A stretch of 64,000 bases of DNA from an uncultured delta proteobacterium (lineage in GTDB: Bacteria > Desulfobacterota > Binatia > UBA9968): NCBI GenBank assembly GCA_963745835.1, contig CAVUZH010000003.1, positions 1,056,001 through 1,120,000 on the forward strand. Reading direction: 5' to 3'. The translations under genes and the position numbers were made by a program. The notes under the pieces are model-generated. The model saw nothing but the letters and a program-made list of their open reading frames with translations, had not been told where the DNA came from and did not search any database. Below, in pieces: positions 7,360 to 12,420 of this stretch; positions within the stretch are counted from its first letter, which is position 1, and each line of letters begins with the position of its first letter.

Positions 7360-8127
7360 ATGAAAGTTTCTAGCGCAGAGTTTGTTAAAGAGATTCAGCA
7401 GATGGTGCGTAAAAAACATTCAAAGGATCACCCCATTATCCGCATGATCGAGGAAGGAAAATTAGATCACGAGCAGCTTAAAGGATTTGTTGGTCAGTTC
7501 TATCTGTTTTTTCCAAAACCTTTTCCTAAGCCTATAGCCGCCATGCTCAGCCGCTGTCCAGACGACCCGGAACTCGAAAAGATGTGGATCGAAAACGTTG
7601 TCGAAGAAGGAACGGGGGAGATCACCGGCACGGACAGTCACAAGGGACTCTTCATTCAATTTGCTCAATCGTGCGGCTTTACCAAAGAAGAGTTAGACAA
7701 GGTAGAGCCGCTTCCGGAAAGCCAAGCCTTCCTTGATTGGCGCGAGCTTTTAATGTACCAGCGCAGCTGGCTGGAGTTGTATGCGTGCCAGGGTTTTTGC
7801 CTCGAAGGTACGGCAAACGAACGCATGACAAAGATTGTCAATGGACTTACAAAGCATTATGGATTCACGCGGGATTCTGAAACTATTCGGTACTGGACCC
7901 TCCATATGGGTGTTGATGAAGAACATATGAAAGTCGGGCCGTTGGCTGTGGAGAGGTATGCGATTACTGAACCTCAGCAGGCCCAGGTGCGGAGCTCAGT
8001 GCAAAAGACTCTGGATCAGTTCTGGCTTGCTTTTGATGGAATCAAACGCGCGTTCGTCGATAAAGATGACATTTACGCCAAGTGGAGAAATTCAGACAGC
8101 AATCAACATCAAAATAGAAGGGGATGA
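7360..8127 (+). CDS. Heme-oxygenase-like diiron protein (PqqC/CADD/TenA superfamily)
   Basis: HP near the N-terminus; ENVVEE...SH, CLEG and LHMGVDEEH metal-ligand pattern. Confidence 0.85.
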   Translation: MKVSSAEFVKEIQQMVRKKHSKDHPIIRMIEEGKLDHEQLKGFVGQFYLFFPKPFPKPIAAMLSRCPDDPELEKMWIENVVEEGTGEITGTDSHKGLFIQFAQSCGFTKEELDKVEPLPESQAFLDWRELLMYQRSWLELYACQGFCLEGTANERMTKIVNGLTKHYGFTRDSETIRYWTLHMGVDEEHMKVGPLAVERYAITEPQQAQVRSSVQKTLDQFWLAFDGIKRAFVDKDDIYAKWRNSDSNQHQNRRG

Positions 8128-8130
8128 TTC

Positions 8131-8784
8131 ATGGAGATGGTTGATCTTTCGCGAATTATTTACGACGGTATGCCCAAAATCCCGGCTCTGCCGGATGTTC
8201 ATGTGCAGAAGTTTTTTAGTCTCGAAAAGGGCCATCCTTTGAATGTGACGGAGCTGTCGTTGCCATGTCATGCCGGCACTCACGTTGACGCGCCAATTCA
8301 TATAGTGCCAAACGGCAAGTCAATAGAAGAACTTCCGCTGGATTCTTTTGTCGGCAACGGAACGATCATCGCTGTACGAAAGAACGGCGGAGAAGAAGTA
8401 ACCGCAAAGGATCTCCAAGCGTCAGGTGTTGAGGTGAAGCAGGACGATATCGTGATGCTCTATACCGGGTGGGACGAGAAGTTCGATAGTCCTGATTATA
8501 ATCTTCATCCTTATCTCTCGGTAGATGCCGCCAACTGGATGGTTGAGAAGAAGATAAAGATGTTTGGGATCGACTGCATCACCGTTGACCTGCCGACACC
8601 GCTTAGACCCAAAGGATTTGATTTCCCCGTGCACAAAGCTCTTCTGAGTAACAACATCTTAATCGCCGAGAATGTGACAAATCTTGGACCTATCGTTGGC
8701 AAGAGGTGCCGAATCCTGGCCTTTCCTCTTCGGATCAGAGGCAGCGATGCGGGACATGCTCGAATCGTCGCCGAATTAAGTTAG
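8131..8784 (+). CDS. Cyclase family metallohydrolase (kynurenine formamidase-like)
   Basis: HAGTHVDAPIH, GID, VHKALL, IAEN, GSDA motifs. Confidence 0.92.
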   Translation: MEMVDLSRIIYDGMPKIPALPDVHVQKFFSLEKGHPLNVTELSLPCHAGTHVDAPIHIVPNGKSIEELPLDSFVGNGTIIAVRKNGGEEVTAKDLQASGVEVKQDDIVMLYTGWDEKFDSPDYNLHPYLSVDAANWMVEKKIKMFGIDCITVDLPTPLRPKGFDFPVHKALLSNNILIAENVTNLGPIVGKRCRILAFPLRIRGSDAGHARIVAELS

Positions 8785-8800
8785 CGATAAGTAAAACCAT

Positions 8801-9769
8801 ATGGCTTCACCGCAAATTATCAAAGGGATTATCGGCGCTTGTCTGACGCCGTTCGACGATAACGATCATATAGATTATGCGGCGTTAGAGAAGGAAATGG
8901 ATTTTCTTCTTGGCGATTGTGACGCCGTAACAATTGCCGCTGTGGAAGCCGCCGAGTACACCATGCTCAGCCGCGAAGAGCGAAAAGAGCTTCTAAAAGT
9001 CGGCACGCAGATGGTCAACAAGCGCGTGCCGGTAATCATTGGCTGTTCCAGTCCGTCACCTCGGGAAGTAATCGACCTGGCCGAGTATGCAGCCACGATT
9101 GGCGGCGATTTTGTTCAAGTGCTGATGCCGCTCCGCCCGTGGGGAGGTCAACCGACCATAGCGGAGTTGATGGAATTTTATACACAAGTCGCATCGACAA
9201 GTCCCTTGCCGGTGGTTTGTTATCATAATCCTGGACCGGGCGCCGATCCGCCACAGGATGCGTTCGTCAAGATCAGCGAAATTGACAACATCCGATATTT
9301 CAAGGAAAGCTCGAGAGATATCACGAAGATCTCCAGATTGATTGAACAGATCGAACTTGCTGGTCGGGGTCATTACTTCACCACCATGCAGCCACTGCTA
9401 GTCACTTTGATGCTCGGCGGCTCCGGCGCCACTATGCCTCCACCTGGAACCCGCATCGGGGCGCAAATTGTGAAAGCGTTTCGAGCAAACGATCTTGAAA
9501 GCGCTCGGTTTTGGGCGCGCTGCTACGCATTATTTCCCGGAAAATGGGCCGCTTACGGTTTGCCGCCGGTGATGAAATCTGCCATGAAACACTTCGGCGT
9601 GGATATCGGCAATCCTTCACGGCCCTATGCTCCGGTGAGCCCCCGCGATCATGCCCAAATCGGCCAGTTTCTCCGCCAGGTTGGGTTAATTGGTGAAGCC
9701 CCACCGAATCCGAAAGCTTTGATAGACGCCGCTAATTTCCTTGCTCAGGAAGATACCTTTCTCCGTTAG
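8801..9769 (+). CDS. Divergent DapA/NAL-like class I aldolase
   Basis: LTPFD, CYHN and FKESS (Schiff-base Lys); the canonical GTTGE is replaced by AVEAAE. Confidence 0.88.
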   Translation: MASPQIIKGIIGACLTPFDDNDHIDYAALEKEMDFLLGDCDAVTIAAVEAAEYTMLSREERKELLKVGTQMVNKRVPVIIGCSSPSPREVIDLAEYAATIGGDFVQVLMPLRPWGGQPTIAELMEFYTQVASTSPLPVVCYHNPGPGADPPQDAFVKISEIDNIRYFKESSRDITKISRLIEQIELAGRGHYFTTMQPLLVTLMLGGSGATMPPPGTRIGAQIVKAFRANDLESARFWARCYALFPGKWAAYGLPPVMKSAMKHFGVDIGNPSRPYAPVSPRDHAQIGQFLRQVGLIGEAPPNPKALIDAANFLAQEDTFLR

Positions 9770-9837
9770 CTTGACGATGGATACTCGCTAGGAGCAATCG
9801 TCTCGCAAATATCCGCGCATAATTTTGTTGGAGTTGT

Positions 9838-10041
9838 ATGGAATGGATTAAAGATCTTTCCGATAAACTGGTTATTTGGTTTCTCCGCAAAACTTCCTCG
9901 TTCGGTAAAGAGCTTACCGGCGCAGGTCGAGCAGAGCAGCTCCTGTGGCGAGAGCAGCGCTTGCGGAATCTAAAAGGTCTCGCAATGCGCTACCAGCAAC
10001 GCCACGGTGAAAAAAAACTTCGGAATAGGTTTCCAGTCTAA
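9838..10041 (+). CDS. Small basic hypothetical protein coupled to the SQR-like gene
   Basis: GGAG RBS; TAATG overlap with the next gene. Confidence 0.55.
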   Translation: MEWIKDLSDKLVIWFLRKTSSFGKELTGAGRAEQLLWREQRLRNLKGLAMRYQQRHGEKKLRNRFPV

Positions 10042-11198
10042 TGCGTCGATTCAATGGGCGAAAACAAATTGTGATATTGGGCGGCGGGTGTGGCGGTGTG
10101 GTTGCCGCGACTCAGCTCGGCAGGAAATTAGGCGCCGACCATGATATTATTCTCATTGACCGCCGCGCTGATCACGTCTTTATGCCCGCATTTCTGTTCC
10201 TGATGACCGGCGACCGACAGCCGCAAGAGATTTGTCGTAGCCTCAGTGCGCTGAAGAAGCGCAACGTTAAAGTGATTCAATCCGAAATTCTCGACATCGA
10301 TCCTGTAGCTCAAAAGGTCAACCTTCCCAAAGAAAAGATCAATTACGACTATTTGATTGTTTCCTTAGGGTTGCAGACAAGACCGGACTTGGTGAGCGGC
10401 TTTAGTGAAGCCTCGCTCCATCCTTGGGAAATGGAATCGGCTCTCAGGCTTCGGCATGCGCTGTCTGAGTTTCGCGGTGGAAGGGTCGTCGTCGGTGTGC
10501 CTTTGGGGCCATACCGCTGCCCGCCAGCGCCGTACGAGGCGCAGTGGATGTTGGACGGCTATTTTAGCCAGCGCGGTATTCGCGATCGTGTACAGATAGA
10601 TTATTTTACCCGGGACCCTGAGCCGGCCGGCGAAGCCCACGATCCGGTAGTTTGGATGGATGCCGAAAGTAGAAGGCGCAAAATTGATATCCACTACGAC
10701 TTTGTCGTGCGCTCCATTGATCCGGTGAAGAGACAAATTAATGGACTCTATAACTATAATCTTCCCTACGATCTTTTGGTGATGGTTCCGCCGCACCGTC
10801 CCGCGCAAGTTCTCCTCGACTGTGGATTGGCAGAAGCCGAAACTGGTATACGAGTAGACTACGAGACGCTGCAAACGAAATGGGAAAACGTCTTTGCGAT
10901 CGGCGATTGCGCCGATATGCCGGCTTCGAAAGCGGGAGGTGTTGCCCACCAAGAAGCTGACGTGTTGGCGCACAATTTAGCTGTAGAAATCACGGGAAAG
11001 GGAAGACCGGTAGATCTCTGGCTGCATACAATATGACTGCTTGCCTTCGGCGCTGGACGCGCCGCTGCTAATAGAACAACTTACCCCACTGGATGGCCGC
11101 CTTACGGGGTCACCTATCCCCGAACATGGGGACCCAATCGACTGATTTATTGGGCTAAAATTGGCTTTGAAAAATGGTGGTTGTGGCGATACTTCTAA
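10041..11198 (+). CDS. Sulfide:quinone oxidoreductase-like FAD protein, candidate selenoprotein (Sec332 at TGA 11034-11036; 385 aa)
   Basis: GGGCGG, YDYLIVSLG, YRCPPAPYE (C160), VFAIGD. After the TGA the frame continues LLAFGAGRAA...YWAKIGFEKWWLWRYF to TAA 11196-11198. Confidence 0.85.
11037..11068 (+). promoter_or_regulatory. Bacterial SECIS-like hairpin
   Basis: CGGCGC (11048-53), loop UGGAC, GCGCCG (11059-64). The loop starts 17 nt after the UGA and has G at position 2. Confidence 0.7.
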
Positions 11199-11281
11199 GT
11201 CTAGAGTTTATTTCAGAATCAGCCCATTATCCAGCGGAGCAAATCAATCGACGGCGTCTTAGACGCGCTCATCAACGTTCC

Positions 11282-11310
11282 TTGTGGCACAACTAGAGGC
11301 AATCTATAGT
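11282..11310 (+). promoter_or_regulatory. Sigma70-like promoter in front of the tRNA remnant
   Basis: TTGTGG-17 nt-TATAGT; the -10 box sits inside the inverted repeat GGCAATC-N6-GATTGCC. Confidence 0.4.
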
Positions 11311-11332
11311 GATTGCCAGGAGTATTAATAGC

Positions 11333-11373
11333 CGCCGGAGTAGAGCAGCCAGGGGCAGGGGGCCCCCCAACAA
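11333..11373 (+). pseudogene. Collapsed initiator tRNA-Met-like remnant
   Basis: 5' CGCCGGAGTAGAGCAGCCAGG resembles the tRNA-fMet acceptor/D arm. GCAGG and GCCCCCCAACAA resemble the T stem and 3' end. Anticodon arm and T loop are absent. Confidence 0.5.
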
Positions 11374-11397
11374 ATCAAAAATTGAGCTATACGCAAA

Positions 11398-11425
11398 AGT
11401 TTACATAATATATCTTATCAGACGT
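11398..11425 (-). other. dif: dif site (XerC/XerD recombination site)
   Basis: Minus strand ACGTCTGATAA-GATATA-TTATGTAAACT has the 11-6-11 architecture with an XerD arm close to TTATGTTAAAT. It is intergenic and the flanking operons converge on it. Confidence 0.85.
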
Positions 11426-11724
11426 TATGTACGAAGCGCGTCTATCGCATAGCACACTGAAACGGTTCACCTCGGGTGATCCGCTTTAAGACCGGTGAAC
11501 CACGCCATCCTGAAAAATAGGCACTTAGCACCACGCCGGTCCTTCCTCATCATTCCGGTAAAAAACTGCGGATCGCGATCACTCACGATTCTACTAACAT
11601 CGTAGCGATTCGAGTGTTGTGAGATTTGTCTGCGAGACAAAACGCGCGATAGTGAGCGGATCTGAATTGGTAAATTCGCACGGGGCTTATGGTGAATTGC
11701 TTTTACGGCGGCTGAGTCCGTCAA

Positions 11725-12420
11725 CTATTTAACGGCTGGGTCCGGCTGAGTCTTGGCTTGCATTTCAGCAACTTGCAGCATGAGACGTGCGGCAATTGGT
11801 GAGTTAGGGTTTTCTTTGATGTACTGCTGATATGCAACAATGGCAGATTTGTTGTCACCGACAACCGTATAACACCGTGCCTTTCCAAGCACGGCGGATT
11901 CTTTCAGAGCTCCGGTAATCCGTTCAGCTTCGGTATAGTGCTGAATTGCGCCGGCGCATTGGTTTTTCAGTTCTTGTATGTGTCCAAGGGTCATCAAACC
12001 TATCTGTCGATAAACGGAGTTCTGATCGGTGGAAGCGATGAAACGCTGGGCCGCGGCGGCCGCTTTGTCCAGATCGTTTGTAGCTAGATGACTGTTGGCC
12101 TCGTAGAGATGCGCCAGAGCGGCATAATGAGACCAACGATACTCTTCGACTTTTTCAAATTCCAGAATGGCTTCGTTGTGTTTATTGGCGCGAAAAAACG
12201 TGATCGCCCTATCGAAATGCTGGGCTGCTTCCTGGTTTTGGCGGCTCTTATAAACCTGCCAAAGCGAAATCCCGATGATCACTGCCATGATCAAAGCACC
12301 AGCTATAATAAAAAGCCGACGTTTTTGTTGAACGAAACTCAAGGCCCGCTGGGTGAACAGCACGAAGTTGTCGGGTTGCCGGAGTTCCTTACGTGAAAAG
12401 TGCTTAGCGCTGGTCGCCAT
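11725..12420 (-). CDS. YfgM-like TPR membrane protein
   Basis: SRKELRQPD N-terminus, single TM, TPR-like helices. Confidence 0.8.
   Translation of the reverse strand: MATSAKHFSRKELRQPDNFVLFTQRALSFVQQKRRLFIIAGALIMAVIIGISLWQVYKSRQNQEAAQHFDRAITFFRANKHNEAILEFEKVEEYRWSHYAALAHLYEANSHLATNDLDKAAAAAQRFIASTDQNSVYRQIGLMTLGHIQELKNQCAGAIQHYTEAERITGALKESAVLGKARCYTVVGDNKSAIVAYQQYIKENPNSPIAARLMLQVAEMQAKTQPDPAVK

Follow-up and report, generated by a model that had tools for sequence, protein, structure and literature searches.

Characterised sulfide:quinone oxidoreductases (SQRs) include human SQOR (PDB 6OI5 and 8DHK) and the enzymes of Aquifex aeolicus (3HYV) and Acidithiobacillus ferrooxidans (3T31, 3SZ0). 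For the human enzyme, PMC11039317 describes an active-site trisulfide carried by Cys201 and Cys379, with the persulfide of Cys201 engaging the flavin adenine dinucleotide (FAD), and Cys379 carrying the sulfane sulfur that is taken by the acceptor and then resolving the flavin adduct. A variant containing selenocysteine (Sec) is on record as well: a table in PMC13188914 lists an SQR selenoprotein with the motif HxxU, citing Xiao & Zhang 2025, in which an NAD(P)/FAD-dependent oxidoreductase containing Sec is predicted for Desulfosediminicola, and the NCBIfam model NF049943 carries the name "type III SQR, selenoprotein subtype" (SQR_III_seleno). Here, we analysed a further candidate on a stretch of 64,000 nucleotides from an uncultured delta proteobacterium of the class Binatia (contig CAVUZH010000003.1 of assembly GCA_963745835.1), the whole of which is called the window. 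We conclude, with a probability of about 85%, that positions 10041-11198 of the window code for a single 385-residue membrane-associated flavoprotein of the SQR family whose UGA codon 332 is decoded as Sec. The original prediction, made from the nucleotide sequence, had left open whether such a family was already described; the enzyme kind is (NF049943, and PMC13188914 by its table), and the clade of the window gene stands as a separate Sec branch. The features of the gene are as follows.

10041-11198, + strand: full coding sequence of the putative SQR-like selenoprotein, with Sec332 among its 385 codons and TAA as stop codon
10074-10097, + strand: N-terminal FAD-binding glycine motif ILGGGCGG, residues 12-19, in line with the Pfam Pyr_redox_2 match
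10518-10520, + strand: TGC codon of Cys160 in YRCPPAPYE, the putative partner redox cysteine, aligned to Cys201 of human SQOR
11034-11036, + strand: in-frame TGA predicted to be read as Sec, residue 332, motif HTIU; conserved TGA in a Cys column
11037-11195, + strand: 53-codon C-terminal tail after the Sec codon, with predicted beta-strands, an amphipathic helix at 367-384 and a coding signature
11048-11064, + strand: hairpin resembling a bacterial Sec insertion sequence (bSECIS), stem 11048-11053/11059-11064, apical loop UGGAC at 11054-11058

The UGA codon, its hairpin and the tail behind it

In the open reading frame (ORF) of the window, translation starts at the ATG at 10041 and meets the in-frame TGA as codon 332, behind which the frame stays open for 53 codons up to the TAA at 11196-11198. 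The original prediction had given this open frame exactly, and the tail it quoted is identical to ours, including the motifs LLAFGAGRAA and YWAKIGFEKWW. Scanning one genome per prokaryote species yielded 111 relatives, of which 80 loci were kept, and the read-through product matches residues 1-385 in related loci. One of the 80 (L088) ends short of the TGA column, which leaves 79 scorable loci, and every one of them contains TGA at column 332, at protein identities to the query of 63-95%. The column was scored by two patterns, of which the first caught 74 of the 80 loci and the second five more. The expectation that relatives would show TGA together with a hairpin at the same column was borne out, with TGC, TGT and TGG absent from all 79 loci and the hairpin conserved. 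No alternative letter was found at 11034-11036 in the contigs of two DNA runs and two RNA-library runs, which excludes an assembly error at this site; the RNA runs contain a small fraction of the words (0.12-0.16), and their contigs span the UGA site. The early stop is almost certainly a Sec codon standing in place of a catalytic cysteine.

Two side observations concern the same region. At window 11031-11037, the codon before the UGA is the isoleucine codon ATA in 76 of 80 sequences, without any synonymous variation among the isoleucine codons, and a C comes directly after the UGA in 78 of 80; the ATA and the following C may represent a context requirement for Sec decoding versus termination. 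Another locus (L091:3001-4156) shifts frame by one base about 12 codons upstream of the TGA but retains an intact TGA and tail in the other frame; it is either misassembled or has recently become a pseudogene.

The codons of the tail were analysed in 79 full-length sequences, comprising the window and 78 loci. Its amino acids are strongly conserved, its four-fold degenerate sites are close to saturation with entropies of 1.2-2.0 bits, and every one of the 79 has its stop at codon +54 (TAG in 30, TGA in 26 and TAA in 23). Conserved amino acids combined with free synonymous sites indicate purifying selection on the protein sequence of the tail. It is also homologous to the C-termini of full-length Cys-containing homologues (33-38% identity), with which it shares the end K..FEK.W.WRWF. 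In an AlphaFold2 model, the tail adds two more strands after that at 329-337, followed by a terminal helix at 367-384, and the block means of the predicted local distance difference test (pLDDT) are 86-96, except for 69 at residues 351-360. The helix at 367-384 is predicted to be amphipathic and to bind to the membrane.

A hairpin with the stem CGGCGC/GCGCCG and the loop UGGAC had been proposed 11 nt behind the UGA, and we confirmed it at 11048-11064, where the hairpin with its 6-bp stem folds on its own at -10.6 kcal/mol. The rules given for bSECIS elements in PMC13188914 demand a loop of 3-9 nt, a stem of 4-16 bp and a G in the first two loop positions, together with a distance from the UGA to the loop of 16-37 nt and a minimum free energy of at most -7.5 kcal/mol. 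With a 5-nt loop, G at loop positions 2 and 3 and a spacing of 17 nt, we judge the hairpin to comply with these constraints. When 73 distinct sequences were folded together by RNAalifold, exactly the 6-bp stem was returned; 436 of the 438 cells pair, and the changes in the stem are all from C to U, keeping a G-U pair, except for two G-G cells. The three lowest entropies among the 22 four-fold sites of the tail (0.10, 0.17 and 0.23 bits) belong to the three stem sites at nt 27, 18 and 30, counted from the T of the TGA, as opposed to 1.80 and 1.55 bits for the two loop sites at nt 21 and 24 and 1.69-1.95 bits for the flanking sites. By our arithmetic, the three lowest sites would all fall into the stem by chance in 1 of 1540 cases. 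An extended lower stem present in the single-sequence fold was dropped by RNAalifold, and its columns 12 and 33 are without covariation by eye. An Rfam scan of positions 9500-11800 at E<=1 returned no bacterial SECIS family, and a microRNA match in the same region is a chance hit (25.3 bits versus a gathering score of 54).

The equipment for Sec synthesis and insertion, which the original prediction had named as a requirement, is complete in the genome. We identified selA, selB and selD (608.6, 394.3 and 383.4 bits, respectively), adjoining on contig C22 (G000:C22:65479-70161, outside the window), and a tRNA-Sec scoring 74.2 bits that ARAGORN calls tRNA-SeC with the anticodon TCA; all four exceed their curated cut-offs. 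The selD gene itself contains one in-frame TGA and probably codes for a Sec-containing SelD. The contamination of the assembly is 9.33%, and the sel genes and the SQR-like gene are likely from the same cell; selB was also present in five of five other genomes with the TGA form. Because TGA serves as the true terminal stop of the same gene in 26 of the 79 full-length sequences, it is still a stop codon in these organisms and has not been reassigned.

Almost all public records of the clade appear to be truncated at the UGA, as had been anticipated for standard gene callers. Among the best 120 hits of a protein search, 110 are exactly 331 aa long and nine measure 327-334 aa, consistent with truncation at this codon. 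The single exception is P0006, a 385-aa Cys form with 70% identity that reads LHTICLLAFEPGKAAANR, and it was also the one full-length protein returned when 5.8 billion protein clusters were searched with the tail as query. The full-length form of the clade appears to be unannotated, and nearly all of its public records seem to lack both the active-site residue and the membrane helix. No description of the clade was found in literature searches, whose reach did not extend to the supplements of the deep-Sep paper.

Redox residues, fold and relation to described SQRs

The protein gave Pfam matches to Pyr_redox_2 (E 3.4e-18) and FCSD_central (E 1.9e-7), and the residues G14, G16, G18 and G19 of the FAD motif are conserved in both of our alignments of homologues (A2 and A3). 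The best sequence matches in the PDB are human SQOR (phmmer E 2.8e-33), SQRs from bacteria or archaea and flavocytochrome c sulfide dehydrogenase (FCSD). An AlphaFold2 model of the read-through product, in which the TGA was entered as Cys and which was built on the 45 rows of alignment A3, reached a pLDDT of 92.7 and a predicted template modelling (TM) score of 0.92, with residue 332 located in the strand 329-337. In the Foldseek ranking of this model, SQRs came out on top (3HYV, 6OI6 and 3T31; TM scores 0.80-0.85), ahead of FCSD and then NDH-2. Taken together, the Pfam matches, the model and Foldseek place the protein in the FAD-binding fold of two dinucleotide-binding domains known from solved SQRs. 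The only hint on its assignment to the SQR types I-VI is the name of the nearest curated model, which is type III.

The motif around C160 and those of the C-terminal tail are present as claimed in the original prediction. Its central proposal, that residue 332 is Sec at the position of the second catalytic cysteine, gained support from the homologues. The phmmer alignment pairs C160 with position 161 of the human SQOR chain and U332 with position 339; allowing for an offset of 40, which we counted ourselves, these positions correspond to Cys201 and Cys379. C160 is invariant in alignment A2 and Cys in 38 of the 45 rows of A3. Of the 32 rows of A3 without the TGA, 26 contain Cys in column 332, and the other six also lack C160, which indicates that C160 and residue 332 are gained and lost together. 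The six homologues devoid of both cysteines (P0161, P0208, P0223, P0230, P0264 and P0267; about 30% identity) are probably paralogues of different chemistry.

On the basis of these residues, a mechanism can be proposed. The hairpin 11 nt downstream of the UGA, with its UGGAC loop, would act as bacterial SECIS and recruit SelB with Sec-tRNA(Sec) to the ribosome, so that the UGA would be read through and the 53-residue tail be made. Sec332 would then fill the role of Cys379, carrying the outgoing sulfane sulfur and afterwards resolving the flavin adduct of Cys160 (Cys201 in the human enzyme), and the pair Cys160/Sec332 might form a selenenyl-sulfide or a bridged redox centre. The FAD would hand the electrons to a quinone, and the C-terminal amphipathic helix would attach the enzyme to the membrane. 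We infer a sulfide:quinone oxidoreductase activity, for which the candidate substrates are sulfide and related compounds of sulfur or selenium. The suggestion that the redox pair is tuned to selenide oxidation found no support in our analysis; that SQRs can bind or oxidise selenide is stated in the title of PDB entry 3SZ0 and in the abstract of bioRxiv 10.1101/2023.04.13.535674.

With the characterised SQRs, the window protein shares the fold (TM scores 0.80-0.85), the FAD motif, a redox pair that matches Cys201 and Cys379 in position and an amphipathic helix at the C-terminus, but it has Sec at the Cys379 position, is shorter (385 aa instead of 405-437 aa) and is 21-26% identical to them. The flavoprotein subunits of FCSD (1FCD, 3VRD, 5N1T) match the fold comparably well (TM scores 0.83-0.85); unlike these, the window gene has no cytochrome partner gene nearby, and its product contains the amphipathic C-terminal helix typical of membrane-bound SQRs. 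A selenoprotein related to TIGR03385 belongs to the same superfamily of pyridine nucleotide-disulfide oxidoreductases and likewise carries Sec in place of a catalytic Cys, but it represents another family with another Sec position, and TIGR03385 gives the window protein 34.4 bits.

The closest described system is NF049943, the best NCBIfam match of the window gene (E 4e-76). Both share superfamily and fold, have Cys-form relatives and contain Sec in the same HxxU motif and the same alignment column (DGHATU in the members L107-L109 of NF049943 and LHTIU in the window gene), whereas true members of the model score 643-669 bits and the window protein is 31% identical to the member L107. The tails are unlike, with LLAFGAGRAAANR in the window gene and MVVTGYEKGSLLDF in NF049943 members, and so are the hairpins. 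That of L107, L108 and L109 consists of an 8-bp CGAGAAGG/CCUUCUCG stem with the loop GGUC, beginning 17 nt after the UGA with the loop at 25 nt, as compared to 11 and 17 nt in the window gene; the closest Cys form of NF049943 (L105) is without the 8-bp hairpin. Searching 201 genomes of the phylum of the window with NF049943 gave 11 matches above the cut-off, three of which contain one TGA (L107, L108 and L109 from genomes G122, G088 and G051). Sec forms thus account for three of the 11 matches in that family, in contrast to the window clade, where Sec is nearly universal (79 of 79 loci and one known Cys form).

In a quick maximum-likelihood tree of 55 rows, the window clade (13 Sec rows and P0006) stands apart from the NF049943 clade (seven Cys rows and three nested Sec rows), and each of them has 100% support. 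The support of the window clade refers to the Shimodaira-Hasegawa-like approximate likelihood ratio test, and its branch length is 1.06. Given the branches with good support, the Sec state must have changed at least twice. By the NCBI cut-off, the window gene lies outside NF049943 and represents a second lineage with Sec within the same kind of enzyme, which was probably converted to Sec independently of NF049943.

Neighbouring genes

The gene is immediately preceded by a small ORF.

9838-10041, + strand: conserved 67-aa ORF (MEWIKDLSDKLVIWFLRKTSSFGKELT...), with a TAA stop that overlaps the start codon ATG of the SQR-like gene

By tblastn, this ORF occurs just upstream of the SQR-like gene in 79 of the 80 related loci. 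Neither Pfam nor NCBIfam gave it a family match at E<=1, and it contains no conserved Cys (alignment A4). Its link to the selenoprotein is deduced from its position, and its product may be a partner or a regulator. Further upstream, three tightly spaced genes on the + strand (window 7360-9769) code for proteins of the PF14518 haem-oxygenase-like/TENA, PF04199 cyclase and PF00701 DHDPS families, which recur in at least 62, 68 and 77 of the 80 loci, respectively. On the downstream side, genes for TPR, bifunctional-nuclease and MiaB-like proteins were found in at least 51, 46 and 25 loci. All these counts come from tblastn searches with the window's own neighbours in short flanks and are hence lower bounds, and the conservation may represent general synteny from shared descent and not from shared function. 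A scan of 9700-11800 for promoters and terminators gave no more sites than in shuffled sequences. According to the labels of the metagenome-assembled genomes (MAGs) and sequencing runs, the clade occurs in soil and rhizosphere bacteria.

Weighing of the alternatives and implications

Two alternatives dispense with selenium. One could take the TGA as a genuine stop yielding a 331-residue protein, with the downstream frame a matter of chance or a decaying remnant and the gene truncated or a pseudogene. This would agree with the public gene calls of 327-334 aa for 119 of the best 120 proteins, and some termination at the UGA probably does occur under selenium scarcity. We nevertheless consider it hardly credible, because the frame and the amino acids of the tail are kept in 79 of 79 sequences while the synonymous sites approach saturation, intact Cys homologues have C-termini homologous to the tail, and no other letters occur at the UGA site in the four runs; moreover, the 331-residue product would be without the second redox residue, three strands and the membrane helix. 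Alternatively, the UGA might be read by a near-cognate tRNA as a standard amino acid such as Trp or Cys, or TGA might be reassigned. UGA followed by C is a weak termination context in E. coli, and C is the base that follows in the 78 of 80 sequences mentioned above. Decoding without selenium is still very improbable in view of the use of TGA as terminal stop of the same gene in 26 of 79 sequences, the complete Sec machinery here and selB in five of five other carriers checked, a hairpin that fits the bSECIS rules with its synonymous sites frozen, and the identity of column 332 as a redox Cys, the usual place for Sec.

A different alternative accepts the selenoprotein and rejects the SQR assignment: the Cys/Sec pair would act on another substrate, for instance a persulfide, an organic compound of sulfur or selenium, or a product of the conserved upstream genes, possibly with the small upstream protein as partner. 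The lack of sulfur-oxidation genes nearby would suit such a function, as would the fixed upstream neighbourhood of PF14518-like, PF04199 and DHDPS-family genes and the uncharacterised 67-aa ORF upstream in 79 of 80 loci. The long branch (1.06) separating the clade from the named SQR model, the score of 256.5 bits with NF049943 and the FCSD structures that match nearly as well as SQRs point in the same direction. The protein nevertheless contains both SQR redox residues, the FAD motif and the C-terminal amphipathic helix, its best sequence and fold matches are SQRs, and the downstream housekeeping genes are conserved too, so that the synteny may come from shared descent. We therefore regard a function other than that of an SQR as possible, yet on balance unlikely.

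Several observations weigh against the interpretation as a Sec-containing SQR itself. On the side of Sec insertion, a 57-nt single-sequence fold of the hairpin region reached a z-score of only -1.28, with 24 of 200 shuffled sequences folding as well, and a 6-bp Watson-Crick hairpin satisfying the rules follows 35 of the 2159 TGA triplets in the window (1.6%). Compensatory double changes were seen in none of the six stem pairs of the 73 sequences, in a comparison whose shuffle control is uninformative owing to the near-invariant stem, and in the absence of covariation the RNA evidence comes from the frozen synonymous sites. Part of the conservation of the stem is also explained by the G-x-G-[RK]-A motif, which is moderately conserved as protein in the Cys homologues. 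Selenium incorporation and translation past the UGA are themselves predicted from the sequence, and the RNA-library contigs across the UGA site are no proof of transcription or of an expression level. As to the enzyme, the window gene scores 256.5 bits with NF049943 (250.6 bits on the genome) versus a cut-off of 525, and there is no sulfur-metabolism gene among its neighbours in the window, so the SQR activity is deduced from the fold and the residues.

The reading of the gene as a Sec-containing SQR can be extended to an independently evolved and obligately selenium-dependent SQR branch that is widespread in soil bacteria (such as Binatia-labelled and deltaproteobacterial MAGs), is partnered with the 67-aa protein and acts on a non-sulfide sulfur or selenium substrate, possibly tied to the adjoining diiron-oxidase-like, cyclase and aldolase-family genes. 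We regard this extended scenario as a long shot. Sec-containing SQRs were first predicted in 2025, and the clade of the window gene would be a second, separate Sec branch of this kind, which is listed in truncated form in public databases. This would imply that a sulfide-oxidising (or related) membrane flavoenzyme of these soil organisms is selenium-dependent. Counting NF049943, Sec would occupy the same SQR residue in two lineages that are placed apart and use unrelated SECIS elements, which would amount to a natural experiment on the contribution of Sec at the Cys379 position. We consider the finding of moderate importance, which would lie chiefly in the annotation of these proteins and in the selenium-dependent sulfur chemistry of soil bacteria.

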